A stretch of DNA of 14,136 nucleotides from Candidatus Heimdallarchaeota archaeon (GTDB lineage Archaea; Asgardarchaeota; Heimdallarchaeia; Hodarchaeales; Hodarchaeaceae), in assembly GCA_019057635.1 (NCBI GenBank), contig DXJL01000125.1, forward strand, positions 1-14,136, in the 5' to 3' direction. Positions 1 through 14,136 of this stretch are shown here, one piece after another. The notes below the pieces were generated by a model. The model was not told where the DNA came from, ran no database searches, and was given only the letters and a program-made list of their open reading frames with translations. The translations under genes were made by a program, and so were the position numbers. Position 1 is the first letter of the stretch. Each line of letters begins with the position of its first letter.

Positions 1-1
1 G

Positions 2-412
2 AAGACCCTAGTTTTAGGGGCTTTTGCGGGGATTATCCCTGATATTGATGGGATTTGGGCAATAATTAATGTTGAGACAGGAAATCCGTCACTAGACTAT
101 CTCTTTTCTCATCGTGGGTTCTGGCATAACCCAATTCTTCCACTTTTATTTGCAATTACTTCAGGGGTATACTTAGTGATAATATTCCTTCCTCGGCGGG
201 AAATGGCAAAAGATCACTTTTGGTCACTATCACCTATAGCTCTTGCATGGTTCTCTCACTTAATTCTCGATTTTGGATTTACTGCTACAAATGATATTCC
301 CGCATTAATCTTTGAATTACCATTACTTGCTGTTTACATGCTAGATCAAATATCAGCGTTCGCTATTTCCGCTCTTCTCGGATATATCCTTTGGAAACAA
401 GTTGGTTCGTAA
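2..412 (+). CDS. Membrane-bound metal-dependent hydrolase (YdjM/DUF457-like), 5'-truncated by the window edge
   Basis: The frame of the 176..412 ORF is open back to base 2: KTLVLGAFAGIIPDIDGIW...LFSHRGFWHNP...WFSHLILDF. It has the family motifs PDxD, HRGxxH and SHLxLD between hydrophobic segments. Confidence 0.8.
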   Translation, partial: KTLVLGAFAGIIPDIDGIWAIINVETGNPSLDYLFSHRGFWHNPILPLLFAITSGVYLVIIFLPRREMAKDHFWSLSPIALAWFSHLILDFGFTATNDIPALIFELPLLAVYMLDQISAFAISALLGYILWKQVGS

Positions 413-693
413 ATATATACCTAGAATTAAAAAATTCTCACGAATCAAGAATTAATTCAGTTTTTTTAACAAATACGAGAATACTCAACGTAAAGAGTAA
501 TTCAACAATTGGATAATTAATCCACAAATTCTTTAGTCTAAATGAGTTCAAATCAACAGAATGCCACAAAGAGAATATTTTAATTTCATTACTCACATAA
601 TGAAATGGGAAGAGGAAAACAATCACTTAGGATTTCAGCATTTGGAAGTTCTCAAGTACTCAATAAGTTTAGTCCATTAAAAATATTTATACG

Positions 694-735
694 AACGTCG
701 TCCATGGCTGGTTTAGATTGGAAAAGTATATGCTA
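694..735 (+). repeat. Intergenic motif copy 1 (class B left arm)
   Basis: AACGTCGTCCAT-GGCTGG-TTTAGATTGGAAAAGTATATGCTA, core at 706, directly abutting the IS left end. Confidence 0.9.
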
Positions 736-2356
736 GGGTGAGATGTGCGCGAAATTTTATTTTTCGTTGTTTTGACATTTCGGGGAAGAGTGGACTGTAA
801 TAATCCGACAATAACATGATTATTATTGAACAAGAGAGGTGAGGAGAACATTTGACCAAAAATGACCCTAACACTACTCTTGTTCGGTTATGGGGTGAGT
901 ATTACCTCTTTTTTAACTATTGTGTATGTCAGAAGCGAGTATTATAAACACTTGTACCAAAACGTCCTGTGGGATAGTTATTCACTGGAAAGAATACGAT
1001 TATTTTTTCAAAAGATTGATCCACTGTTAAAGCGGATGTATCCCATAGTGGACAAATTAAACAAGAAGAGGGGACGCCCAGTAACCAATAGATGCTTTCA
1101 ATTACGTTTTGTCATTTGGTGGAAATTTTTTGCTCCTGGACCACAAAAAAACGCGGTGGAAAGACTGAACAAGTCACCAGAACTCCAACAAATTCTGGAG
1201 GCGCCCGGAAATCCATATACCAGGGCAAGTCTCCGTCGGTTCCTCAAAGATGTGGGAGAAGAGGGATTCAGACGAATGGGTTTTTTACTTGCGGTGAAAT
1301 TGCTCAAGAAAGGGATTATTGATACCTCAAAAGTCGTGTTAGACTTTTTTCCAGTCTATTCGTATTTAAATAAGAGTAAGTGTCTAAAAATCCCAAAGTT
1401 CAATAAAAAATTAGCGAAGCAATTTTTTCAGGAATTAAGCCTGAACTACATCATTTCCAAATTTCCAATACCGCGTAGAAACTCAGCCCCATTAGTAGAC
1501 AAGTTGAAAGTCTGGATTCACCAGTATCTATGGGATATTCCCTCCAATCAACGCAATCACTATCATATATTTGGGAGAACCAATCGAAGGGAGGTACTTG
1601 GGCTTGAAAAAGGATGGAAGGCGGCGAAAACGTATCAAGATTTCTTAGATGCCTTGAAAGCCCTTCCCAACGCATCTGAGATCTAATATGTAATAGTGAC
1701 AGAGGTGGTGCGTGTACTTCGACATCTGGGAGTAACTCTTAAGAGTACTAAATATCAGCGTATAGAAGACCTTCGTTGCGTGTTCCATACTCCTCATCGT
1801 CTTAAAGATCCAATTATCACCTCAAATTATTGTGCAGCCAAAGATCAACATTTTATGGGACGAGGTGGATTGTTGGCAATAGTTCCTTCCTTAGGAATAC
1901 CACTATTCTTACAGGTAACTGCAAAGTACAAACAAAGTGAAGAATCAATTCGATCATTTCTAAAGTCGATGTCTCAACAGTATGGAGGACTTTTACGGGA
2001 GATAGAGGTATATGCGGATAGTGAGTTTGGTACCGAGGGAATTAAGGATGCGTTAAAGCGTTTACTTACGGCTACTCCCTATATCGATGTGTTTGCTCGG
2101 AGTGTCACACGATCAACATTAACTATTGAGCAAAAAAATATTCGTAAGACCGTGGAACGCGTGATTGCCCGTTTAGAAACCAATTTTCCCCTTGAACATC
2201 CTTCTGTTCTTGGAGACGACTCAGTAGCAATCCATACTCAGCTCTGCTTCCTTTGCGATTTGCTACTTGTTTCACATAACCTTTTAACAGGCAATCACTC
2301 TCACCCCCACTCCCTCTCATACATTCGGGGATAAAAGTTTTGAACACCTCTCACTC
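736..2356 (+). mobile_element. Insertion sequence of ~1.62 kb, IS4/IS5-like DDE type, with imperfect terminal inverted repeats
   Basis: Left end 736-761 is GGGTGAGATGTGCGCGAAATTTTATT. The reverse complement of right end 2331-2356 is GAGTGAGAGGTGTTCAAAACTTTTAT (18/26 identical, ungapped). The ends enclose the transposase frame. No clear target-site duplication. Confidence 0.75.
862..2334 (+). pseudogene. DDE transposase (~490 aa) interrupted by a single in-frame TAA at 1684-1686
   Basis: ORFs 862..1686 and 1696..2334 are in the same frame. Motifs are KKRGRP in the N-terminal region, VVLDFFPV (D1), VYADSEFG (D2) and RKTVERVIARL (R-x3-E, catalytic E), as in IS4/IS5 DDE_Tnp_1-type enzymes. Confidence 0.8.
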
Positions 2357-2704
2357 AGGTTTATATTAATTTACGAAATAAAAATGGAAATAATTGTTTC
2401 ATTCAAAACAACAGTACAAATTTTCTCTCAAAAGCAATCTCCATTGAGTAATAAATATAGATTTTTAAATATCTGAACAAAATCATCGAATCGAGGTCCA
2501 AATTGGTCAAATTCTAGAAATGCTTTGGCAAGTAAAGACAACAATTAGTAATAGAAACCAACATTCAATACTTGAAAAAGTTCTTTAATGGGCAAAAATT
2601 CACCACATATTTAAGTAGCAGACAAAAATGTCAATTTAAGTATCTGTACTAGGAATTAATCTTGTTCAATTGAGCTAAATAATTTAAAGATAGGAGTACA
2701 ACAA

Positions 2705-3748
2705 GTGAAACGTTGCGTTATATTAGGGACAGGGTTAATAGGACAGCAATTTGTACGGCTTTTAGATACACACCCATATTTTGAATTAACAGAAGTGGTT
2801 GCATCAGATAAATCTGAGGGTAAGTCGCTCAAGAGTAAATGGAACTTACCGTCATTTGAAATTCCAGATATGTTTGCTAATTTACAAATGAGTTCACTTC
2901 GTAATTTAGCCCCTAATAGTTATGATATAGTGTTCAGTGCACTCCCTGCATCAATAGCAAAAGAAATTGAGTTAGAAATAGCCCAGAATGGAAAACCAGT
3001 TTTCTCAAATGCTTCTGCACATCGCTATGAACCAAATGTTCCTATCTTAATACCTGAAATAAATGCTAAACATCTTGAGATCATTACACATCAAGATTCG
3101 TTTAATAATAATGGATTTATTGTCACAAACTCTAATTGTACCGTTTCTGGCCTCGCAATGCTATTAAATGAGATCAGACAAGTTCAACAAATTAAAAACG
3201 TTTATGTTAGTAGTTATCAGGCATTAAGTGGAGCAGGATTTGAAGGGCTTAAATCCATTCCTCGTGATCGGGTCATTCCGTTTATAGAAAATGAGGAAGA
3301 AAAGATTTCAATTGAAGTACGAAAAATTCTTGGGTCTGTTAATCATGACAGGATCGTTAATAATACAGAAATTGATGAAGTTTTAGCTACTTGTGCAAGA
3401 GTCCCAGTCATTGACGGTCATTTAGAAGCTGTTACAATAGAATTTAAGACGAAAATTGATCCAACGGCAATACTAGATCATTTAGAACATATTCGGAGTG
3501 ATCTCTCTTTACCAACAGCCCCGTCCAAACCGATTAAACTATTTAAAGATTTGGATCGTCCCCAGTCTACTTTAGATTTATACGATAAAACTGGAGGACG
3601 ATCAAGTGGCATGGTAGTGAGTATTAGCCCTATCAGATTTACTAAATATCATCTTAGATGTTTTTTATTAGTTCATAATACAATCCGGGGTGGAGCAGGA
3701 GGTTCTATTTTGAATGCTGAACTGGCATATTCAAGAGGATTTCTTTAA
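2705..3748 (+). CDS. asd: Aspartate-semialdehyde dehydrogenase (archaeal/fungal type)
   Basis: ILGTGLIGQ Rossmann motif, VFSALP, FSNASAHR, VPILIPEIN, catalytic NSNCT, YQALSGAG, RVPVIDGH, HNTIRGGAGGSILNAE. GTG start with AGGAG at 2692-2696. Confidence 0.97.
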   Translation: MKRCVILGTGLIGQQFVRLLDTHPYFELTEVVASDKSEGKSLKSKWNLPSFEIPDMFANLQMSSLRNLAPNSYDIVFSALPASIAKEIELEIAQNGKPVFSNASAHRYEPNVPILIPEINAKHLEIITHQDSFNNNGFIVTNSNCTVSGLAMLLNEIRQVQQIKNVYVSSYQALSGAGFEGLKSIPRDRVIPFIENEEEKISIEVRKILGSVNHDRIVNNTEIDEVLATCARVPVIDGHLEAVTIEFKTKIDPTAILDHLEHIRSDLSLPTAPSKPIKLFKDLDRPQSTLDLYDKTGGRSSGMVVSISPIRFTKYHLRCFLLVHNTIRGGAGGSILNAELAYSRGFL

Positions 3749-3798
3749 TACTCTCTTGATTGCCTAATCATCTGTAGAAATCAATTTTCCCTCCCCTG

Positions 3799-3825
3799 TT
3801 TTTTTTCTGATTATTTTTTTCTTTT
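3799..3825 (+). terminator. Oligo-T tracts, possible archaeal-type terminator of asd
   Basis: TTTTTTTTCTGATTATTTTTTTCTTTT in the gap between the convergent asd and lysC genes. Confidence 0.35.
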
Positions 3826-3836
3826 GACGCGTTTAA

Positions 3837-5243
3837 CTACTCTACTATGACCTTACTATGTGATGGTTCCATTATTCGTTTATGCAGTACTTCTAACCCT
3901 CTTTTTGCATCCTCCTTTCTTAGAACCATCGATAGATTTATTTCTGAGGCTCCTAGAACCATCATTAAAATTTTGATATTATTTTCTTCAAAAACCTCAA
4001 AAACCTGTCTAAGAACTAATGGGTTCTCACTAATACCACGGCCAACACAACATAGAATAGACCCTTTTATCTGGGTAATCATTGAAATATCCTTTCTTTC
4101 ACTTTCAGATTTAAATTCTTGGTTTAACTCATTGATTACTTTTGTTGCATCTTCAGAACGAAGAACAAAACCAATTTTTTGTTCTGCAGCAGATTGTGAG
4201 ATCATTAGTATATTGGCACCAACGCTGCGTGCACAATTAAAGGTACGAGCTGAAATTCCAGGAACACCAATCATTCCTTTTCCCAAAACATTAACTATCG
4301 AGATATTTGGTATAAGATTAATTACTTTTATGCCATTAGGTTTGGATTCTGATTTGATGAGAGTCCCAGGGTTCTCAGAATCAAATGTGTTTTTTATTCT
4401 AATTGGAATATGATTTTCAGCAGCTGGTAATATGGTCTTTGGATGAAGTACTTTTGCTCCATAATAGGACATTTCGAAAGCTTCTTCATAAGATAAATCC
4501 GTAATTTGTTCAGCAGTAGAGATCGATCGGGGATCAGTACTAAAGATTCCAGGAACATCTGTATAAATTACGATTTCTTTGACCTTAAGAAGCGCTCCAA
4601 GGATAGAAGCTGAATAATCGGATCCATTCCTACCTAAAGTAGTTGTAATATAATCTCTAGTTGAACCAATGAAACCTGTAATAACAGGAATAGTGTTTGT
4701 ATCCAAAATTGAATGTAAAGTATTTATTCTATTATTACTGACATCAAAATTAGGAGCTGCTTCCCCAAAATTATCGTCTGTGCAAATGAGATCCTCCGCA
4801 GATATGTATTTTGAGTGAATCTCTTTCGTATGCAGCATGGCATTAATTATTCTTGCAGAAAGTTTTTCCCCAAATGAAAGGATATAATCCCGAATCTTTA
4901 GACCTGATTCTCTTAAAATGATGGCTGATTTACATACGTCTTTAAGATTAACCACTTCTTCATTTAACTCAGTAAGTAATTCTGACTTTATTTCACCCTC
5001 AGGTATTAATTTATCAATGAAATCCAAATGAAGATTGAAAAATTCAAGTATGAGACTAAATACTTTCTGTGTATCCTTTTTAACTAGTAAATGGGAGATA
5101 ACCTCGAGTTTATCAGTGATTCCATTCATTGCAGAAATTACCACAATTGGATTATTATCCTGATAAGAGGAGATTATGTTTACTACTTTTTGAATACTTG
5201 ACGCGGTACTTACGGATGATCCACCAAACTTTAAAACATACAT
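3837..5243 (-). CDS. lysC: Aspartate kinase with two C-terminal ACT domains
   Basis: VLKFGGSSV, VVISAM, SFGEKLSA, TTLGRNGSDYSA, TDVPGIFSTDPR, YGAKVLHP. ACT motifs GMIGVPGISAR and GASEINLS. Confidence 0.96.
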   Translation of the reverse strand: MYVLKFGGSSVSTASSIQKVVNIISSYQDNNPIVVISAMNGITDKLEVISHLLVKKDTQKVFSLILEFFNLHLDFIDKLIPEGEIKSELLTELNEEVVNLKDVCKSAIILRESGLKIRDYILSFGEKLSARIINAMLHTKEIHSKYISAEDLICTDDNFGEAAPNFDVSNNRINTLHSILDTNTIPVITGFIGSTRDYITTTLGRNGSDYSASILGALLKVKEIVIYTDVPGIFSTDPRSISTAEQITDLSYEEAFEMSYYGAKVLHPKTILPAAENHIPIRIKNTFDSENPGTLIKSESKPNGIKVINLIPNISIVNVLGKGMIGVPGISARTFNCARSVGANILMISQSAAEQKIGFVLRSEDATKVINELNQEFKSESERKDISMITQIKGSILCCVGRGISENPLVLRQVFEVFEENNIKILMMVLGASEINLSMVLRKEDAKRGLEVLHKRIMEPSHSKVIVE

Positions 5244-5403
5244 GAAATGAAACCTCGAAGCAAATTAAAGTTTTAAACCGATATGTAAGTGCTTTTTAGC
5301 AATTTTACTGTTTCTTATAAAAGATTCACATTGAAGAAGTTGATTATTTTCAGAGATACTCCCACTTATCCTTGATTCAATCCTAGTAAAGAAGATTGAA
5401 TTC

Positions 5404-5450
5404 CGTAAAAGGCTGGTTTAGATAGGAAAAATATATACTGGGGTATATAC
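5404..5450 (+). repeat. Intergenic motif copy 2 (class A) with intact downstream palindrome
   Basis: CGTAAAA-GGCTGG-TTTAGATAGGAAAAA-TATATAC-TGGG-GTATATAC, core at 5411. Confidence 0.92.
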
Positions 5451-5714
5451 CTACAATTGAAAAAAACAAATTAGCAAATCAAACCTTTGTTAAATATTGA
5501 AAACATCGAATTTCTTTAAGAAGAGAAAAATGTGAACTTCTATTAATTACATAAAGGACTTTTGAAAGAAAAAATATTAAATTCTTTAGATACCTACCAT
5601 TTAATAAAACGAATAATAGACTCTTGTACCTATTCCAGAGAGGTTTCTCAAAATTCCGAATATAAAAATATAGTGATGGATAACCAACCAGATTCCAAGA
5701 AGGATATTAAGAAT

Positions 5715-6752
5715 ATGAAAGCGATTATGTTAACGAAATTAGGAGGACCTGATGTTTTAAAAGTTCACGATGTTCCAAAACCCACCATAAAGAATCCGAA
5801 TGATGTATTGGTCAAAATAAAGTTTTCAGGGATAAATTTCGCAGAGATACTGGCACGAAGAGGACTTTATAAGTGGGTTCCAGCAAGGAAGGGGTTTATT
5901 CTAGGGATGGAAGGAGCTGGTATTGTGGAAAAAGTTGGAACAGAGGTTGCTAATTTTAACGTAGGAGATCCAGTAATTGTAGTAAGAGGGTTTGGCTGTC
6001 ATGCTGAATATATCGTTCTAGAAGAGAAATATGTTCTTCCTGCAATTCCAAACTATACTTTAGAACAGAATGCTGCATTTACAGGGTCATTCATGACTGC
6101 CTATCTTGCACTAGTAAAGTTTGCTCGGGTTGAGTCAGGTGAGACGATTCTTGTACAAGCAGCAGCTGGAGCTTTGGGAACTGCAACCGTTAAACTAGCG
6201 AAAGCTCTCGGGTTAAAGGTTGCTGGTACAGCTAGTAATACAGAAAAAATCACCATGCTTAACAAAATGGGCATTAATTTAGCTATTAATTACTCTAAAG
6301 AAAACTTCAAAGAATCTATAATGGAATGGACTGATAACAAGGGAGTGAATGTTGTCTTAGAAAGTGTTGGAGGAGAAGTCTTCAGGGATTCTCTTCAATG
6401 TCTGTCTGCAATGGGAAGATTGATATTTGTCGGTCTAAGTAGTATTCGATTTAGCAAATTTAATCCATTGACATGGTGGTCCACATACAAATTAATTCCC
6501 AAGATTAGTTTGCTAGATATGTTAGGTAAATCTTACGGAATTCAAGCTTTCCATGCTGGACGATTACTTGATAATAATTACACAGAAATAAGAAAATCAT
6601 TTGACGATCTAGTAAATCTTGTGCAACAACATGAGATTTCACCGACAATTTCAAGAATTTTTCAACTGAATGAGATTGTGGAGGCTCACCGAATGATTGA
6701 ATCGAGAAATAACATTGGAAAAATACTCCTTAAGATAGGCAGGTCTTCCTAG
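5715..6752 (+). CDS. NADPH:quinone oxidoreductase-type MDR protein (zinc-independent, VAT-1-like)
   Basis: MKAIMLTKLGGPDVLKV, GINFAEILARRGLY, ILGMEGAG, LVQAAAGALG, SRNNIGKILL. The family-typical start is ATG 5715; ATG 5676 is an alternative, and the track's TTG 5562 looks over-extended. Confidence 0.9.
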   Translation: MKAIMLTKLGGPDVLKVHDVPKPTIKNPNDVLVKIKFSGINFAEILARRGLYKWVPARKGFILGMEGAGIVEKVGTEVANFNVGDPVIVVRGFGCHAEYIVLEEKYVLPAIPNYTLEQNAAFTGSFMTAYLALVKFARVESGETILVQAAAGALGTATVKLAKALGLKVAGTASNTEKITMLNKMGINLAINYSKENFKESIMEWTDNKGVNVVLESVGGEVFRDSLQCLSAMGRLIFVGLSSIRFSKFNPLTWWSTYKLIPKISLLDMLGKSYGIQAFHAGRLLDNNYTEIRKSFDDLVNLVQQHEISPTISRIFQLNEIVEAHRMIESRNNIGKILLKIGRSS

Positions 6753-6979
6753 TGAAGTAGGTTTTTACACCTATTATAGGTGGAGCATTGATTCAATATT
6801 TTCATTCTCAGACTCTTCCTACTCTGCTTACTGCTATTTTCTGTTTGACAATTCTCTTATGGCGGTGGTATATATCTACACCTCAATTTTCTTCAACGGT
6901 ACAAGTTACAACGACATAATATAAATAGTAGAATGATTAATTATAGATATTTAAGATCGTTAATGTATTTGCATTTCCC

Positions 6980-7019
6980 AACTTCGTAAAAGGCTGGTTT
7001 AAAATAAAAAAGTATTTAC
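6980..7019 (+). repeat. Intergenic motif copy 3 (class A)
   Basis: AACTTCGTAAAA-GGCTGG-TTTAAAATAAAAAAGTATTTAC, core at 6992, ending 4 bp from the nfi stop codon. Confidence 0.88.
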
Positions 7020-7023
7020 AAAA

Positions 7024-7734
7024 TCAATTGTATCTAAAATATTTCACAGTATCTCGAGTTAGTTTATCTGCTAATCTAATGGGCTCAGGTAAACGTTGAC
7101 GCGTATAGCGTGAGATAAGGGATGTTGCAGTCTGAATAGAGATGAGATGTCCAGGCGAAATATAAATTGGTTTGTAGATTACATTAGGAATCACTGCGGT
7201 TCCGATTTCTTGGTTTTTATACATAACAGGGGATATTTTATTTTCTAATAGGATATGCTCATCAACATTCCCTATTAAAAGTCGCTTGGCAACCCCTATG
7301 GTTGGTTTTTTTAGAGTAATTCCAAGATGAGAGGCAACACCCAGCTTGTAAGGATGAAGAATACCATTTCCATCAACCACAATAAGATCTGGTTTGTTTT
7401 GTAGTTTCTTATATGCTTCCACCAGACCTGGTGCCTCTCGGTAAGCTAGAAAGGTAGGAACATAGTCAATCTCTGGTGTGTAGATTTGGAACACATATTC
7501 TACCAATGTAAAATTAGGGACCTCTAGAACCACCATACCAGCACAAGCATCACCATTAGAAAAAAATGAAACATCACAACCCGCCACGAGGGAAATCCTT
7601 GATAGAGAAGGATGATCCTCGATAATCACTCTTTTTTGCAATGTTAATTGCTCTTTACGTAGATTTTTGAAGTGATCTACCAAATTCGGAGGAATATATT
7701 TTTCTATCCACGGTTCTAGTTCTATACACTCCAT
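7024..7734 (-). CDS. nfi: Endonuclease V (deoxyinosine 3'-endonuclease)
   Basis: VAGCDVSF, YVPTFLAYRE, VDGNGILHP, GVASHLG, PTIGVAK, PIYISPGH, RLPEPIRLAD. Confidence 0.96.
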   Translation of the reverse strand: MECIELEPWIEKYIPPNLVDHFKNLRKEQLTLQKRVIIEDHPSLSRISLVAGCDVSFFSNGDACAGMVVLEVPNFTLVEYVFQIYTPEIDYVPTFLAYREAPGLVEAYKKLQNKPDLIVVDGNGILHPYKLGVASHLGITLKKPTIGVAKRLLIGNVDEHILLENKISPVMYKNQEIGTAVIPNVIYKPIYISPGHLISIQTATSLISRYTRQRLPEPIRLADKLTRDTVKYFRYN

Positions 7735-7850
7735 GTTTTTTCTACTTAGATTTTAATCTTATAAGTAAATGTCTAAATTCCCAAGAATTAGGCTCATTTG
7801 ATCCACAAGTTTGTTCAAATACATATTTCAGTTTTCCTAATCTCGTACTC

Positions 7851-7899
7851 TGTCGTAAAAGGCTGGTTTAGATAGGAAAAATATATACTAATGTGTATA
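7851..7899 (+). repeat. Intergenic motif copy 4 (class A)
   Basis: TGTCGTAAAA-GGCTGG-TTTAGATAGGAAAAA-TATATAC-TAAT-GTGTATA. Bases 7854-7889 are identical to 5404-5439 (36 bp). Confidence 0.92.
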
Positions 7900-8080
7900 A
7901 GCAGATGAGTAGAATAAATCGTAATCTCTAGATAGACCATATGGGACATTTAGACAGGGTTATAGAATTTAGAGCTTATTTTCGGTGAACAGTTCAATTT
8001 CATCGCTGAAGGAATATTTACAGGCGTATTGATATATAAAGTTAAACGGATCTGAGCAATCAAAACTAAGGGTGAATGCG

Positions 8081-8872
8081 ATGAGAAATCCTGAAATTGC
8101 TTTAAATTCTGTTTTATATGAAAAAACAGACCTAATTGCTACCATTACTATTAATCGGCCTGATAAACGAAATGCTTTACGTATGGAAGAATTTGATAAG
8201 CTTATCAAATTTATTAAAGACGCTGACTCTGATGAATCTGTTCATGTCATTCACATCAATTCTGAGGGCGAAAAAGCGTTCTCTGCTGGATTGGATTTGA
8301 ATATGTTGCAGCAATTAGCGGCCTCTCCTGAAAATATTCCTCGTCTTCTTGAGTATGGATTTGGTTTAGTAAAAACGATGTTGCTAGCAAAAAAACCAAT
8401 TGTTGTGCAAATTCAAGGTCCTGCGGTTGCGTGGGGTGCAATTATATGTTTAGCTGCAGATTTTGTAATTGCAGGTGAAAATCCTAACACATTTCTTTCG
8501 CTCCCTGAAATTGATGTAGGATTGTTTCCCGCAACAGGAGCTCTAACCATGGCATTATTGAATTCCGGATTTAGACGCTCCAAAAGAATTCTTATGGTTC
8601 CAGAACGTCTATCCTTAGATGATGCCGTAGAATTAGGAATTATCACTCGTAGATGTCCTTTAACTAACCTCCCCGAGGACACGTTATCATTCTGTGAGGT
8701 TCTTGCCAAAAAACCTCAATCTATCCTTATTCCAATAAAAGCGTTGATAAATCGTTTTTCTTTAAAAGATCTCGATTATTATTTTACTAAGGAGACTGAA
8801 GCCTTTAATTTATCTATGGCTGGAGAAACAGAAAAATTTAACGAATTTATACGAATCCTATGGGAGAATTGA
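8081..8872 (+). CDS. Enoyl-CoA hydratase/isomerase (crotonase) family protein
   Basis: ATITINRPDKRNAL, AFSAGLDL, KPIVVQIQGPAV, AADFVIA, LPEIDVGLFP. ATG 8081 is preceded by GGGTGA; GTG 8072 is an alternative start. Confidence 0.92.
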   Translation: MRNPEIALNSVLYEKTDLIATITINRPDKRNALRMEEFDKLIKFIKDADSDESVHVIHINSEGEKAFSAGLDLNMLQQLAASPENIPRLLEYGFGLVKTMLLAKKPIVVQIQGPAVAWGAIICLAADFVIAGENPNTFLSLPEIDVGLFPATGALTMALLNSGFRRSKRILMVPERLSLDDAVELGIITRRCPLTNLPEDTLSFCEVLAKKPQSILIPIKALINRFSLKDLDYYFTKETEAFNLSMAGETEKFNEFIRILWEN

Positions 8873-8956
8873 TTTTATATTTAGATCTGTAAACGTATTT
8901 CAACTTCTGTCGGAATATGTAACTAAAATTCTACTAGAAAAAAGTGGAGACTTAAA

Positions 8957-9045
8957 TTCACCATTTTGAGACTAATAATAATTGCTTTCACATATAATGA
9001 AATACTATAGGATAAATCATCACGTACGTCGTCCGTGGTTGGTTT
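8957..9045 (+). repeat. 89-bp extended repeat ending in degenerate motif copy 5 (class B)
   Basis: Ungapped match to 12008-12096 (70/89 by hand count). Ends ACGTCGTCCGT-GGTTGG-TTT, core at 9037. Confidence 0.85.
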
Positions 9046-9342
9046 TATTTTTAGGAAATTGCCTTTTTGATGGAATAGAAAGGATTTTTCTAGGAATTTT
9101 CCAGTTAGGAGTCATAGATCGTTGGAATGAAAGATTTCACATAGGAATTTACCAAACGAGTGTCATAAAATAGAGTATTGATCATAATTAGAGAATTGAA
9201 TCCACACCTATCAGAAATGAATTAATTAGTAATGGCTTGAAAAAGTTATAAATGAAGTAGTTTTAATCAATTAAATCGAAATTGCTTCTCTTGATGACAG
9301 AAGAAAGCAAGGAATTTATCAGATAAGGGAGACATAACAAAA

Positions 9343-11847
9343 TTGAAAGTCTCTGAAATTAAGGAATTGATCCAAAGAGGGAATTACTATCAAGCCTTAG
9401 AAGCGATAGAGGATTTAAGCCCAAGTGATAAACTAAATGGTTTAATTCTTAAAAGCAGAATTTTTGAGCAGAAGGGAGAGGTAGAAAAATCACTTATAAT
9501 TGCTGAGCAAGCATTAAAAATGAGTACAACTCTAAGTGAGAAGCTACAGCAATTACAAGCAGAAATTTGTCGTGGTTTCGGATTTCTTGCTCTACAAAAA
9601 TTGACAAGATTAGAAGAAACTATTCTAAGAGGAGAAGCACTCTTACTTTCTTTAGTAAACGAATCAACATTAGATCTAAAGAAAAGTGAAGCAGATCTCA
9701 AATATCTTAAGGGTTTCTTATTTTTTATGAAAATTGAAAGAGATATTGCACAAGATTATCTTAATGAGAGTTTGGCAATCAGGAAAGAAATTATTGATGA
9801 ACAAGGAATTATAGAATCATATACAGCCCTTGGAATGCTTTATTTATTATTATATAAAAAACCAGTGACTGCTATTGACAATTTTAAAAGAGCAATGGCT
9901 TTTATGGAGAGTTTGGGGACTAAAACAATTTTTACATATTCATTGAGACAAATAATGAGTTATGACGAGGTACTCGCCCTTATATCAGTACCAGAAGACC
10001 AACAAGCCTTTTTACCTGATTATACACGGAATATCTGTCCTGAAGTTTGGAAAATTACAAATCAGTTTCAACAAAAATTAAGTCAAAATTTGCTAAGAGT
10101 ACCATCTGAACTAAAGAAGGAATTTCTTCTCGCTTTAGATAGTTACCAGAAATACAATGAATTGTTTAATATATTCACATCTTTTTCACCAATTTATCAA
10201 GATGTTGGATGGCATCTTCATGTCAAAGGTGATCTTGTCCGTGCTTTACACTTTTATAAAAAGAGTCTAGAACTCTTAAAGAATATAGAAGAGAATAAAC
10301 CAGAAACAGGACGTCTTTTAAGCACTCTGGGAACCATTTATGCTGATTTAGGGAAGTTAGATCTTGCTCTTGAATATTTCAAGAGTAGTATAAATTTAAA
10401 TCGTGAAATAGACTGTAAAATAGCAATTGCTTATAATTTGAAGGAAATTGCTAAAATAAATTCATTGAAAGGAGAACTAGATCTAGCTATGGATAATATT
10501 AATCAAAGTTTTAACTTATTCTTGGTATCTGACTGGCGAGATGGCATAAATCGATGCTATTTGGTGTTAGGGGTCATTTGGAAGCATATGGGAAAACTAG
10601 ATCTAGCTAGAAGTTTTTTAGAAAAAGGGTGGGTGCAGCGTAATCAATATGGTGGGATTTTTCCCCTTTTTGATTCGTATTATCTCTATCATCTGATTTT
10701 ACTTACTCAAGAACGAAATGATGCAGAGAACGCAGTTCATTATCTTAGTCAATTGCACAAAATACAACAGAGTCATGAATCTAAGACGATTACCTTAAGA
10801 TATCACTTTTGTGAAGCTATTGTTCTTATGATGAGCAATAGGACAATTGACAAATTCCTCGCTCAACACAAATTACGTGAAATTCTAGAAAAACACACAG
10901 AAAGGTTACTCTCTACTAATCCTATATTCATTATGGTGATGTTAAACCTTTGCGAGTTATTGATGCTGGAATTAAAAGTCTCTAGCAAACAAGAAGAAAT
11001 ATTTCAGGAAATTTCAGCATGGATTGGAATATGTCGACTACAAGCAGAATATTTCAATCTACTACCACTACTTGTTTCTTCATTTATTATTGAATCTAGA
11101 GTAAATATGGTCAAGAATGACTTGAAACATGCTCAAATACTTCTTAATAAAGCACAAATAATTGCAGAAGAGAAAAAGTTAGGAAATTTGATAGAAAAAG
11201 TGAAGAAAGAAAAAAAAACACTGGAATTGTATGAATGGGGAAGTCGTAAAGAAGATTCCATTCAAGAGCGTATAACGCAAGTTAACTTGGAAGAATATTT
11301 CAATGAAGCGAAGAAATTACCTCAAACTTGGGTACAGAGTACCACGATGCAACCATTACCCGAAGATCCTGTTATGTTCGTTATAGTTACTGATGGGGGA
11401 TTAACTCTTTTCACAAGAATATTTGACCAAAATTACTCTAAAAAAGTTGGTTTGATCGGACAAATCTTAGTAGCTTTCGAAATGTTTAGTCAAGAAGTTT
11501 TTTCAGCCTCAGCTGATCATGTGGTAATGGGAGATCTGCGGTTGGTTATGCAGACGCGGGGTAATTTAAGATTTGCATATGTTTTTAGAGGAGAATCCTA
11601 TCCAGCTATCAGTAAACTAATTCAATTAATAAATAAACTTCAGTTAAGACGTGATTTATGGGAAAAATTAGAGGATATCATTATTACAGGTGTTGCATTA
11701 AGTTCAGGTGAGAAAGCTGAAATAAATGGTGCTCTTAATGATATTATTTTTTCAACTAGCGCTAACAACACTGGATGGTTCCACAGTCCGTATCTCAAAT
11801 ATACTGAAGAAGCCCGACAATTAGTTGAAACTTGGGGAACAAAATGA
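9343..11847 (+). CDS. Large tetratricopeptide-repeat protein with a putative C-terminal longin-like domain (Asgard-type architecture)
   Basis: TPR consensus segments such as LSTLGTIYADLGKLDLALEYFKSSI, VGWHLHVKGDLVRALHFYKKSL and LGVIWKHMGKLDLARSFLEKG. The C-terminal alpha/beta domain begins PEDPVMFVIVTDGGLTLFTRIF. TTG start preceded by GGGGAG. Confidence 0.85.
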   Translation: MKVSEIKELIQRGNYYQALEAIEDLSPSDKLNGLILKSRIFEQKGEVEKSLIIAEQALKMSTTLSEKLQQLQAEICRGFGFLALQKLTRLEETILRGEALLLSLVNESTLDLKKSEADLKYLKGFLFFMKIERDIAQDYLNESLAIRKEIIDEQGIIESYTALGMLYLLLYKKPVTAIDNFKRAMAFMESLGTKTIFTYSLRQIMSYDEVLALISVPEDQQAFLPDYTRNICPEVWKITNQFQQKLSQNLLRVPSELKKEFLLALDSYQKYNELFNIFTSFSPIYQDVGWHLHVKGDLVRALHFYKKSLELLKNIEENKPETGRLLSTLGTIYADLGKLDLALEYFKSSINLNREIDCKIAIAYNLKEIAKINSLKGELDLAMDNINQSFNLFLVSDWRDGINRCYLVLGVIWKHMGKLDLARSFLEKGWVQRNQYGGIFPLFDSYYLYHLILLTQERNDAENAVHYLSQLHKIQQSHESKTITLRYHFCEAIVLMMSNRTIDKFLAQHKLREILEKHTERLLSTNPIFIMVMLNLCELLMLELKVSSKQEEIFQEISAWIGICRLQAEYFNLLPLLVSSFIIESRVNMVKNDLKHAQILLNKAQIIAEEKKLGNLIEKVKKEKKTLELYEWGSRKEDSIQERITQVNLEEYFNEAKKLPQTWVQSTTMQPLPEDPVMFVIVTDGGLTLFTRIFDQNYSKKVGLIGQILVAFEMFSQEVFSASADHVVMGDLRLVMQTRGNLRFAYVFRGESYPAISKLIQLINKLQLRRDLWEKLEDIIITGVALSSGEKAEINGALNDIIFSTSANNTGWFHSPYLKYTEEARQLVETWGTK

Positions 11848-12007
11848 TCACCTAACCTTTTGTGCTGGTTAACGTTGGTTTTATCCGTTTTTTAATTAAA
11901 ATTTATTTAATCTAATATCAATAAACGTTGGATAAGCGACATTGGTGCTCAAGAAGTATTAATCTAGTTCAAAAGATAATGGACTTATTCCTTTAAAAAA
12001 ATCTAGG

Positions 12008-12117
12008 TTCACCATTTTGAAACCTAGTATAATTGCATTCACACATAATGAATTGCTAAAGGATATATTAGTGCAAACGTCGTCCATGGCTGGTTTAGAT
12101 AAGGATAGTATATACTT
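12008..12117 (+). repeat. Extended repeat plus motif copy 6 (class B)
   Basis: TTCACCATTTTGA...CACATAATGAA...AACGTCGTCCAT-GGCTGG-TTTAGATAAGGATAGTATATACTT. Bases 12076-12100 are identical to 694-718 (25 bp). Confidence 0.9.
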
Positions 12118-12147
12118 ATAGTGGGGAAAAAGAAAATCAGACTGTAA

Positions 12148-12543
12148 TCACCAAGATTGGGTATTAACTTGAGGAATTTTTTCAAAATGACGAGTGTTCT
12201 TTGTTACTACTGTAGAAATTCCTCGTGAAATCATGGTGCCAGCAATTAGAATATCAGCTCCCCCTATCATTTCGCCTTTGGCTCGTAAATCTGCTTCTAT
12301 TATAGCAGATCTAGTTGCAGCAGCTAAATCAAAATCTAGTATAACTATCCTACTTAAAAGGTTATTGCGAACTTTCAGTTCCATTTCCGAGTTTGTTGCT
12401 CCAAAAGCTCCTACTAAGAATTCATGAGCTACGATTGTATTTGTTACATGAGGACCTTCTTTGTCCAAATCATCTAAAAGTGTTTTAGCTGGAGCATGTT
12501 TTCTTATAACATCAATTAGAAATGAAGTATCTAGAAACTTCAT
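12148..12543 (-). CDS. vapC: PIN-domain toxin, VapC family
   Basis: MKFLDTSFLID, HEFLVG, IGGADILIAG, VVTKNTRHF. The likely start is ATG at 12543, 4 bp after the antitoxin stop; the track's 12630 start overlaps the antitoxin. Confidence 0.93.
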   Translation of the reverse strand: MKFLDTSFLIDVIRKHAPAKTLLDDLDKEGPHVTNTIVAHEFLVGAFGATNSEMELKVRNNLLSRIVILDFDLAAATRSAIIEADLRAKGEMIGGADILIAGTMISRGISTVVTKNTRHFEKIPQVNTQSW

Positions 12544-12547
12544 GGTT

Positions 12548-12766
12548 TTATCGTCCTTGGAAAAAATTCTGACGTCTCTGTTCAATTTCACTAAGTTCTT
12601 CTTCATACTCACTCTTAGATTTAGTTCCAACTCCCCAATAATCTTTTAAATTTCCAAATAAACCAGAAATCCGTAATATTGTGTCTGAAAAAGACTCTCC
12701 TTCCAATTGTAATGATTTTAATGCGTGATAAGCTGCTTCCTTCACTGTGATTGTTTTCGATACCAT
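12548..12766 (-). CDS. vapB: Archaeal VapB-type antitoxin (DUF217-like)
   Basis: KTITVKEAAYHALKSLQLEGESFSDTILRI motif. 72 aa, directly upstream of the PIN toxin. Confidence 0.9.
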   Translation of the reverse strand: MVSKTITVKEAAYHALKSLQLEGESFSDTILRISGLFGNLKDYWGVGTKSKSEYEEELSEIEQRRQNFFQGR

Positions 12767-12796
12767 GTTTATGTGTATGTTTAAACTTATATAAAA
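12764..12796 (-). promoter_or_regulatory. TATA box and hexamer repeats of the first vapBC operon
   Basis: The minus strand reads TTTTATATAA-GTTT-AAACAT-ACACAT-AAACAT-G. The TATA box lies ~21-30 bp upstream of the ATG, which suggests a leaderless transcript. Confidence 0.5.
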
Positions 12797-12815
12797 GATT
12801 TTCTAGATTATTATC

Positions 12816-12857
12816 AACTCCGTCAAAGGCTGGTTTAGATTACAAAAGTATATACTA
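12816..12857 (+). repeat. Intergenic motif copy 7 (class A variant)
   Basis: AACTCCGTCAAA-GGCTGG-TTTAGATTACAAAAGTATATACTA, core at 12828. Confidence 0.9.
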
Positions 12858-12889
12858 GGGTGAGATGTGGGCGAAATTTTATTTTTCGT
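12858..12889 (+). mobile_element. Solo left-end remnant of the same IS
   Basis: 31/32 identical to 736-767 (GGGTGAGATGTGSGCGAAATTTTATTTTTCGT). No transposase or right end follows it. Confidence 0.75.
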
Positions 12890-12915
12890 AACAAAATTTT
12901 GATTTGGGAAGATTA

Positions 12916-12937
12916 TTTATATATGCATATGCATATA
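12916..12937 (+). promoter_or_regulatory. TATA box overlapped by an 18-bp perfect palindrome (probable operator of the second vapBC)
   Basis: TTTATATA at 12916-12923, TATATGCATATGCATATA at 12920-12937, and an RBS-like GGGTGA at 12945-12950. Confidence 0.55.
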
Positions 12938-12956
12938 AAAAGATGGGTGAACAATA

Positions 12957-13199
12957 ATGGCAAAAAACATTGCTGTTTCAAATGAGATCTACAAAGTATT
13001 GAATCAGCTCAAATTAGGAAATGAAAGTTTTTCTGACGTGATAAAGAGGTTATTACCTCCAAAATCGATGTTGTCAGATATAGCCGGAACTAAAACGTTC
13101 AGCTATCAAGAATGGAGTGAAATTCAAAGTGCTTTCCAAGATCAGAGAGCATTGGATATTGAACGAACGAAAAAACTATTAGAAAAAATGGTTGATTAA
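12957..13199 (+). CDS. vapB: Archaeal VapB-type antitoxin (DUF217-like)
   Basis: KNIAVSNEIYKVLNQLKLGNESFSDVIKRLL motif. Coupled to the downstream PIN gene. Confidence 0.9.
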   Translation: MAKNIAVSNEIYKVLNQLKLGNESFSDVIKRLLPPKSMLSDIAGTKTFSYQEWSEIQSAFQDQRALDIERTKKLLEKMVD

Positions 13200-13611
13200 T
13201 GTGTGGTTAGCAGATACGACTTTTATCATTGATTTGGTCAATAATGACGAAGGAGCAGTGAAAATGGCGCAAATAATAGATAGAATGCACTCAGTCGTTT
13301 TCATATCAGCTATTACGATCCAGGAATATCTAAGAGGTATTTATTATTTATTTGGAAATAAACTAAATCAAATCGACAAAAAATTGTCAAAAGCTGAAGG
13401 CGATCTAGCCCGATTCAGTGGACTAGAGCTAAATTATAATGTAGCAAAAGCTGCTGCTAAGATCGACGCTGATCTAACTCGCAAAGGAGAACAGATAGGT
13501 TATGCTGACGTTTTAATAGGAGCAACAGCTCAATTCTATCAATTGACAATTTTAACACGAAATGATAAACACTTCCAAAAAATTCCTGATTTAAAAATTG
13601 ATATCTATTAA
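13192..13611 (+). CDS. vapC: PIN-domain toxin, VapC family
   Basis: WLADTTFIIDL, SAITIQEYLRG, IGYADVLIGATA, ILTRNDKHF. Start is either TTG 13192 or GTG 13201. Confidence 0.93.
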   Translation: MINVWLADTTFIIDLVNNDEGAVKMAQIIDRMHSVVFISAITIQEYLRGIYYLFGNKLNQIDKKLSKAEGDLARFSGLELNYNVAKAAAKIDADLTRKGEQIGYADVLIGATAQFYQLTILTRNDKHFQKIPDLKIDIY

Positions 13612-13631
13612 ATGGTTCAAATATCTGTATT

Positions 13632-13669
13632 TGTCGTAAAAGGCTGGATTAGATAGGAAAAGTATATAC
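13632..13669 (+). repeat. Intergenic motif copy 8 (class A)
   Basis: TGTCGTAAAA-GGCTGG-ATTAGATAGGAAAAGTATATAC, core at 13642. Confidence 0.92.
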
Positions 13670-13857
13670 ATATTGGTAATTCTAGTAATGTGCCACAGGA
13701 ATCACAATGAAAGGCTGTTAAAGGGTTCGGGGCATGTTTAACAGTATATACTTAGGTATATAAATGGTCTATCTCTTTTTTTATACTCAGACGGAACAAA
13801 GATTGCAATGATATCTTGTTCCTTGTTATTTCAAACAATTATAACGGTGAAAAAAAA

Positions 13858-14061
13858 GTGACAACTGAAGAAATTGGTAAAAACGTCAAAGTAACCATTG
13901 ATGAGAATATTTTAACAATAAGGATTGATTTAACTAAGACATTTGGAAAGTCTGGTAGTGGTAAATCGACCATTATTGCTACTACATCAGGTAATAAGGG
14001 AATTGGTAAAGAAGATATTAAATTAGGATTAAATTGCTATACTCCTGTAAAGAACGATTAA
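13858..14061 (+). CDS. Small hypothetical protein (~67 aa, beta-rich)
   Basis: GTG 13858 is preceded by GGTGA. Sequence KNVKVTIDENILTIRIDLTKTFGKSGSGKSTIIATTSGN...LGLNCY resembles, from recollection only, a small uncharacterised family; not verified. Confidence 0.75.
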   Translation: MTTEEIGKNVKVTIDENILTIRIDLTKTFGKSGSGKSTIIATTSGNKGIGKEDIKLGLNCYTPVKND

Positions 14062-14090
14062 TATTAACCCTCTCTCTTTCTTTTTTCGCT

Positions 14091-14126
14091 AACTCCGTAA
14101 AAGGCTGGTTTAGAAAAGGAAAAAAT
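14091..14126 (+). repeat. Intergenic motif copy 9 (class A)
   Basis: AACTCCGTAAAA-GGCTGG-TTTAGAAAAGGAAAAAAT, core at 14103. Confidence 0.9.
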
Positions 14127-14136
14127 TTCTCGTAAA

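Follow-up and report, generated by a model that had tools for sequence, protein, structure and literature searches.

How does an archaeal chromosome come to carry a row of small gene modules with the same short site, in one orientation, at every boundary? The question is raised by a 14,136-bp stretch of DNA (the window), which is the whole of contig C97 of a metagenome-assembled genome (MAG; here G000, 3.19 Mb in 214 contigs, 36% G+C, 91.6% complete) and which terminates inside the last of its nine sites. The reading that we favour, at a confidence only a little above even, is that the window is part of a chromosomal gene-cassette array moved by conservative site-specific recombination at the hexamer GGCTGG, with the enzyme acting in trans; an integron-like cassette array of a new type is the most likely description. 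Recombination is strongly suggested by comparing the sequences of related species rather than demonstrated. An initial annotation, made from the sequence alone, had proposed an array of shufflable cassettes in a probable Asgard archaeon. Its guess at the host was correct, since the closest named contigs to the window belong to Heimdallarchaeota B3_Heim and a Hodarchaeota MAG; its cassette reading is supported by the reordering of modules among relatives, but the recombinase that it supposed was not located.

Anatomy of the site

An alignment of 133 copies, drawn from 20 genomes, shows the repeat as a block of ~40-52 bp with sharp edges, AAC(T/G)(T/C)CGT(A/C)AAA GGCTGG TTTAGAT nnn AAAAGTATATAC (T/C)AGG GTATATAC, with an abrupt left edge and unconserved flanks. 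An 18-nt left half, AAC(T/G)(T/C)CGT(A/C)AAAGGCTGG, closes each module, and a right half opens each module; in G000 this opening is always TTTAGATnnnAAAAGTATATAC, often followed by nnGGGTATATAC, and sister species sometimes have the alternative right halves ATTAACACY or ATTGATAAG. The initial annotation had described a single site, which is too simple: the junction is bipartite, and about one third of the junctions in other species carry a different right half. GGCTGG is the best-conserved hexamer, each of its positions being agreed in 121-128 of the 133 sites, and it supplies five of the six most conserved positions; the longest invariant stretch runs from position 13 to 25 and a second from 29 to 40. 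The profile has no dyad symmetry beyond the GTATATAC boxes, the second of which is complete (at least 7 of 8 pairs) in just 50 of the 133 sites, and no compensatory change in a GTATATAC-N4-GTATATAC hairpin was found across the 133.

In the window the GGCTGG cores lie on the plus strand at 706, 5411, 6992, 7861, 12088, 12828, 13642 and 14103, with GGTTGG at 9037. These are the nine positions of the initial annotation, whose intervals between them (4705, 1581, 869, 1176, 3051, 740, 814 and 461 bp) are also correct, as is its statement that no toxin-antitoxin pair is interrupted by a site. One further GGCTGG, at 8818, falls within the crotonase gene and lacks the motif; the minus strand of the window is free of the motif, as had been claimed, and CCAGCC is absent. 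Six copies match a 28-mer at no more than three mismatches, against 0 expected (200 shuffles), and the profile made from the nine finds each of them again, at E values from 5e-13 to 0.018, the weakest being 9037.

Most of the junctions have the TTTAGAT start, here called T1. Site 1 (694-745, profile E 5e-13) combines it with a CGTCCAT-variant left half, and sites 2 (5399-5450, with both GTATATAC boxes), 4 (7849-7900), 6 (12076-12127, again a CGTCCAT variant), 7 (12816-12867) and 8 (13630-13681) are T1 junctions found with both the 28-mer and the profile. The right half is degenerate in three copies. Site 3 (6980-7031, E 1.5e-6) keeps an intact left half; site 5 (9025-9076, E 0.018) consists of a left half only (TACGTCGTCCGTGGTTGG), its right side being unrecognisable and classed as 'other'; and site 9 (14091-14136, E 4e-5) has an intact left half and a right half that is also clipped by the contig end. 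All nine are on the plus strand. Neither Rfam (E<=1) nor a tRNA scan gave a match in the window.

Distribution and orientation

The motif was sought in 400 Asgard genomes from 85 genera, 22 of them from the source genus and 378 from others. It is present in 20 of the 22 genomes of this one Heimdall/Hodarchaeota-type genus, and outside it in one of the 378, as a 3-mismatch match; a reversed-pattern control also gave one. Within G000, profile matches at E<0.02 fall on C97 (nine, plus strand), C142 (four, plus) and C207 (four, minus), with one weak match on C144, and a left-half matrix run over both strands (6.4 Mb) gave 17 matches in the arrays and 6 weak ones elsewhere. The initial annotation had named scatter across the genome as a ground for abandoning its reading; the strong matches are instead confined to 3 of the 214 contigs, two of which terminate in or just past a site.

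Across the genus we fetched 53 array contigs and counted 138 sites, 135 of which lie outside open reading frames (ORFs) of at least 100 aa. The sites keep one direction, as expected from the window: of 85 pairs of adjacent sites, on 29 contigs, 84 share an orientation. The 84 internal modules range from 61 to 8815 bp, with a median of 1.5 kb, and mostly hold one or two ORFs. Fragmented MAGs of the genus carry up to 16 or more sites. The sole inverted site among the 138, at 17169 on L053 (G003:C97), stands beside two plus-strand sites of its contig and may mark an inversion or an array end.

Some sites follow one another almost directly. Tandem copies 54-73 bp apart occur on L027 (G020:C163) at 12672/12744 and on L046 (G004:C63) at 67/121, and a joint of the same kind, 7888->12815, was found in public run X4. 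Such an 'empty' unit, seen in two genomes and one public run, is nothing more than a right half and a left half with about 20 nt between them.

Modules are conserved and their neighbours are not

Do the modules travel with their neighbours? We compared the flanks of 115 sites with at least 300 nt on either side. The left flank is common to 15 site pairs by blastn or 17 by tblastx and the right flank to 24 or 25; both flanks are common to one pair only, which is an artefact of overlap between two sites lying 73 bp from each other on a single contig. All-against-all comparison found many modules common to several species at differing array positions. After the Cbi transporter module comes YdjM in G000, a 613-bp or 73-bp module and then vapBC in G018 and G020, and, in G002, ~870 bp of unshared sequence and a site, then nfi; module 6 of the window, a vapBC pair, also occurs in G020, G018 and G005 beside other neighbours. 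Relatives keep individual modules but not gene order, in agreement with the initial annotation.

A 14.1-kb core region, taken as a control, aligns collinearly from end to end in G002 (96% identity) and G004 (74%). In G020 and G018 it is split into two blocks, and the collinearity of a second control region is only partial. The window itself matches its relatives as scattered module-sized pieces on 3-5 contigs per genome, and only about 2 kb out of 14 is present in the closest of them, G002. Between G000 and G020, some modules have a higher identity (TPR 94%, vapBC 89%, crotonase 87%) than the core of the two genomes (77-83%), which suggests recent exchange of modules between species.

Public sequencing runs were examined as assembled Logan contigs, which break at sites and in which rare circles are invisible. 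One run spans site 7861 in the arrangement of the window, and another has two tandem sites after nfi. In a further contig the end of the second vapBC module is linked, across a site, to the beginning of the first; this would be either a different order or a circle, and lends weak support to module movement. Two other run joints, 5450->14081 (with a 21-nt side) and 7395->11075 (off-site), are not interpretable.

Position of the joint

If modules change partners, where within the repeat does one end and the next begin? Site pairs with only the left flank in common exceed unrelated pairs in identity at site positions 2-13, but not from 14 on; pairs with only the right flank in common do so at 19-28, 33 and 37, but not at 1-13. 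The left half goes with the preceding module and the right half with the following one, and the switch therefore falls in GGCTGG, where the initial annotation had looked for it: homology breaks between relatives lie there. In G018, past the vapBC module, the sequence is kept as far as ...CCGTCAAAGGCTGG and then diverges immediately.

A scan with the left half returned 152 site-strand copies. The sequence that follows is TTTAGAT... in 100, ATTAACACY in 27, ATTGATAAG in 6 and something else in 19; these right-half classes are interspersed within the same arrays, and at 33 junctions a different conserved start comes directly after GGCTGG. Since the right sides vary among the 152 left halves, the left half is the constant element, and cassettes have at least three start types (T1, T2 and T3), with only WTTR in common past the joint.

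A proposed recombinase acting in trans

What would make such joints? A conserved asymmetric 6-bp centre, a joint within it and a weak surrounding dyad would fit a tyrosine recombinase with a 6-bp overlap. Each site is formed by two abutting halves, one from each neighbouring module, and on this reading modules would be excised, inserted and exchanged by conservative site-specific recombination, with strand exchange across GGCTGG; the asymmetry of this hexamer would give the site its direction and would impose the strict co-orientation of the arrays. From these patterns we infer that a site-specific enzyme makes the joints, with GGCTGG as its overlap, and the identity of the enzyme is put forward on the same footing. 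It would act in trans, and the only candidate seen is an unlinked XerA-type tyrosine recombinase. G000 has one PF00589 match, a XerA equivalog (270 bits against a cut-off of 220) that falls below the integron-integrase model (165 bits against 265) and lies in a collinear core region (L077:11256-12206), unlinked to the arrays. Each of six genomes examined (G000 and five others) has one XerA-type gene, which in the five is far from the arrays. An unrecognised genus-specific enzyme is at least as likely as XerA to be the recombinase.

Archaeal dif, the Xer site, has been described with a TAA(N6-8)TTA feature in the part of PMC11840125 drawn on here. A hunt for dif in G000 (an 11-6-11 repeat with TAA-N6-TTA) gave 5 candidates, and the two that were checked are conserved solely in the closest relative. 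Two serine recombinases proved to be IS607 TnpA proteins adjoining TnpB. They belong to IS607-type elements with a TnpA gene and a TnpB/Cas12f-like gene, at 3793-5585 of L079 (G000:C54) and 3185-5286 of L080 (G000:C56). The absence of IntI is unproven, because G000 is 91.6% complete.

Several observations weigh against a dedicated cassette system. No recombinase was found on the array contigs, at the array ends where the initial annotation had suggested looking, or near any site; conversely, no sites were found near 10 non-Xer integrase loci in four genomes, and no recombinase stands beside the sole site of the one-contig genome G015. The single-contig genomes of the genus have just 1-3 sites (L021, G015:C1 19167-19436; L023, G010:C1 18070-18106), so that either array size varies strongly between species or arrays have been lost or collapsed in those assemblies. 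The dyad around GGCTGG is weak (AAA|GGCTGG|TTT in T1), the arms being complementary at 3 of 7 positions in T1 or 4 of 7 in T2 (the ATTAACAC form). The linkage test rests on small samples, 16 and 24 pairs, and homologous recombination within the invariant 13-nt block would put joints in the same interval. Neither an excised circle nor an empty site was demonstrated in the public-run contigs, which break at sites. Some shared modules lie away from sites: the TPR region (window 9120-11877) is 94% identical to 128-2886 of L081 (G020:C243), a 6-kb contig without a site, and the G018 copy of nfi is on C6, also a contig without one. Finally, asd, lysC and nfi are single-copy in G000, so some of the cargo does not look dispensable.

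The more specific proposal, of Asgard cassette arrays independent of integrons, with a bipartite double-strand-type site, a GGCTGG overlap and either XerA or an undescribed recombinase in trans, we advance tentatively, giving it slightly less than an even chance. In the portions drawn on here, the literature on archaeal integrons, integron-like cassettes and XerA/dif (including PMC9668308, whose CALIN supplementary tables fell outside this scope, PMC8813620, PMC2958812 and PMC11840125) contains no such arrays.

Alternative explanations

Could the modules be shuffled with no enzyme of their own? The repeat might be another kind of DNA element, such as a genus-specific chromatin, insulator or Xer/SMC-related binding site, with homologous recombination between the ~40-bp repeats moving the modules about; we judge this unlikely, although it is the alternative that survives best. 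The joint interval, 13-19, does lie within the longest invariant stretch, 13-25, no dedicated recombinase was found, and the single-module swaps between kept neighbours (F5-x-F6 and F6-x-F2) are what a double crossover would produce. Crossovers of this kind, however, should fall in the second stretch, 29-40, about half of the time, yet positions 26-28 have no left-flank linkage. T2 and T3 right sides have only WTTR in common with T1, which leaves little homology to recombine. The 40-nt block is also strictly kept across species whose core DNA is 66-83% identical, so that sequence-specific selection is needed to maintain it.

A second alternative is that the modules are non-autonomous transposon-like units which insert beside the end of an earlier copy, whether by target-specific or rolling-circle transposition, and so build head-to-tail arrays. 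The units do have distinct fixed ends (a 34-nt start and an 18-nt end), the T1 end read on the minus strand has a subterminal palindrome 14 nt from its terminus, and tiny units of 61-73 bp, with nothing but a start and an end, exist. We nevertheless consider it improbable. A search of G000 for a Y1 HUH transposase found none (a Y2 search also found none but carries no weight, its control having been silent); the palindrome is the box pair that is complete in so few sites and lacks compensatory change; the serine recombinases are ordinary IS607 TnpA proteins; and the DDE transposase of the window is a single-copy insertion within one module.

Slightly less probable again is a regulatory role with no part in rearrangement, the repeat being an archaeal promoter (with the TFB-recognition element, BRE, and the TATA-like AAAAGTATATAC) or the terminator of a clustered regulon. 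The sites are intergenic in the proportion given above, and the right half has TATA-like boxes after an A-rich stretch, which could be read as BRE and TATA elements. The genes, however, ignore the direction of the sites. Within the 84 internal modules 74 ORFs run with the site and 118 against it; the first ORF past a T1 site is on the plus strand in 36 cases, on the minus strand in 50 and absent in 14, and the last ORF preceding a site is plus in 43 and minus in 45. This unbiased orientation argues against a promoter or a terminator, as does the long gap, with a median of 148 nt, to a plus-strand start codon. In no case is adjacency across sites conserved, and the halves abut at a fixed point.

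Are these simply canonical integron arrays of the type called CALIN (clusters of attC sites lacking integron integrases), with attC too divergent to recognise? attC sites are imperfect inverted repeats (R''-L''...L'-R') of 55-140 nt that fold as single-stranded hairpins. The joint at G|TT, with a sharply conserved AAC lying 17 nt upstream, resembles the GTT and AAC triplets that belong to R' and R'' in the attC consensus; but the distance from AAC to GTT is 14 nt, far under that of any attC. Folds of 160-nt windows (-110..+50) around 16 sites gave z-scores between about -1.7 and +2.4 for the top strand and between -1.1 and +1.9 for the bottom, and alifold found no consensus structure in 33 aligned left tails; together with the lack of a profile dyad beyond the GTATATAC boxes these checks agree with the initial annotation that the sites lack an attC-type hairpin. 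Conserved sequence lies mostly on the side of the downstream cassette, the opposite of attC, and IntI was not found (the sole match scoring 165 against 265 bits). Archaeal integrons and CALINs are enriched in Asgard archaea, according to the sections of PMC9668308 used here, which speaks for this reading; we regard it as very improbable all the same, the least likely of these alternatives.

A dispersed family of repetitive extragenic palindromic (REP) or miniature inverted-repeat transposable element (MITE) type is rejected on the clustering of matches on 3 contigs and their co-orientation. We likewise reject the left half or T2 start as coding sequence, although its minus-strand translation (..NPAFYGV, MDDV..) resembled a conserved peptide, given frames of 6-107 aa, a varying position of the motif and 108 of 152 copies without a start codon.

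Cargo of the arrays

The content of each interval of the window, as assigned with Pfam and NCBIfam, agrees with the initial annotation. Upstream of site 1 lies the 3' part of a YdjM-family membrane protein gene (2-412, plus strand), a 96%-identical copy of which stands between two sites on C207. Module 1 (746-5398) carries a split, IS-like DDE transposase (862-1686 and 1696-2334, plus), an aspartate-semialdehyde dehydrogenase gene (asd, 2705-3748, plus) and an aspartate kinase gene (lysC, 3837-5243, minus). Module 2 (5451-6979, plus), assigned by Pfam and homology, encodes a zinc-type alcohol dehydrogenase (ADH), or medium-chain dehydrogenase/reductase (MDR) family oxidoreductase (ORF 5562-6752); its true start is probably downstream of the annotated TTG at 5562, because homology in relatives begins only near 5714-5736 and leaves the first ~50 codons unmatched. 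Module 3 (7032-7848, minus) holds endonuclease V (nfi, 7024-7734) and module 4 (7901-9024, plus) an enoyl-CoA hydratase/crotonase (8072-8872), both by Pfam.

Module 5 (9077-12075, plus) encodes an 834-aa TPR protein (9343-11847, Pfam), followed by a ~100-nt tail that also occurs upstream of site 5. A tail of ~90 nt before CGTCCAT-type left halves is 79% identical between 8957-9045 and 12008-12096 of the window and recurs in G002:C103 and G020:C163; it marks a sub-family of cassette 3' ends. Module 6 (12128-12815, minus, Pfam) is a VapB antitoxin (12548-12766) with a PIN toxin (12148-12630), module 7 (12868-13629, plus) a VapB-like protein (12957-13199) with VapC/PIN (13192-13611), and module 8 (13682-14090, plus) an 81-aa ORF (13816-14061) without a family match, these last two by Pfam and NCBIfam.

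Two side observations concern module 1 and its neighbour. The YdjM and asd regions are duplicated in the MAG, window 1-488 and 2564-3047 matching 2939-3425 and 1-482 of L002 (C207) at 96% and 89.5% identity; between them C97 has a site and the insertion sequence (IS), and C207 a small ORF, a site, AsnC and an AsnA-like gene. The pair probably comes from two co-binned strains or from a duplication, and provides a natural variant of the array. The IS-like element (862-2334), whose transposase is split into 274 and 212 aa, is single-copy in G000 and has no clear terminal inverted repeats; contig depth over it is raised in the best-matching run, and G002 contigs stop at its left edge.

Taken over the arrays, the cargo is accessory. 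Five toxin-antitoxin pairs lie on the three array contigs of G000, together with metabolic enzymes, the Cbi transporter, TPR proteins, a sensor kinase and a prenyltransferase; families that recur on the fetched array contigs, some of them in the flanks, include ABC ATPase, DinB, LRR, LVIVD, glyoxalase-type, PIN and MNT/HEPN. PADLOC, applied to 8 cargo proteins, gave generic TPR matches only. asd occurs in 2 of the 22 genus genomes, the G002 copy being truncated with an internal TGA, and the only asd and aspartate kinase genes of G000 lie within the array (window 2705-5243). The nfi type of the window (>70% identical) is found in 5 of the 22; the rest carry an nfi of 29-40% identity elsewhere, and in G000 the array copy is the only nfi shown. 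The nfi of the window looks like a xenologous replacement.

Significance

Integrons are the one well-understood system for stockpiling and reshuffling single genes, with one enzyme family and one folded type of site. If the favoured explanation, cassette movement at GGCTGG, is true, cassette platforms have evolved more than once, here on a different site and without IntI or expression polarity, and screens of the IntegronFinder type would miss such arrays. The lineage nearest to eukaryotes would have a means of its own to capture genes and exchange them among species, in the Hodarchaeales/Heimdall branch, whose routes of gene gain are debated in relation to eukaryote origins; and, since some cassettes exceed core similarity between species, genes may be flowing actively through the arrays. 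Because the site is short and has sharp limits, the idea can be tested directly.

Comparison with known systems

With REP elements, their bacterial interspersed mosaic elements (BIMEs) and MITEs the sites share the character of a short, conserved intergenic repeat that carries a palindromic box and disrupts short-read assembly. Unlike these they have no terminal inverted repeats, and a REP-associated tyrosine transposase (RAYT/Y1) was not found in G000; they are clustered (3 of 214 contigs), co-oriented and bipartite, each half being inherited with a different flank.

The Acinetobacter pdif modules and the integrative mobile elements exploiting Xer (IMEX) are a further comparison. They too comprise modules without a recombinase of their own and short sites with a 6-bp centre, and an unlinked host Xer would serve them in trans, one conserved XerA being present per genome examined here. 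Their pdif sites alternate in orientation, whereas here all are direct (84 of 85 pairs), and the arms are only weakly dyad-symmetric here, whereas sites served by Xer have two inverted binding arms of ~11 bp around their 6-bp centre. From archaeal dif the sites differ in lacking its TAA(N6-8)TTA feature, as given in the same part of PMC11840125.

In comparison with integrons, the pairing of site and enzyme is probably new. The arrays described here are without the attC hairpin, the R''/L''/L'/R' layout and IntI; the downstream cassette supplies the larger conserved part of the site, whose sequence is restricted to one genus, and common expression from a Pc-type promoter is not to be expected, because cargo orientation is unbiased, whereas integron cassettes mostly lack promoters and run with the array. 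Yet like sedentary chromosomal integrons and CALINs, among them those of archaea described by Ghaly et al. 2022 (PMC9668308), they form long arrays of co-oriented sites with one- or two-gene cassettes. In CALINs, too, the integrase is often unlinked. The cargo is similarly accessory and species-variable, with many toxin-antitoxin pairs and small enzymes of the DinB and glyoxalase types, and the sites are hybrids made from both adjoining cassettes, with the joint at G|TT.

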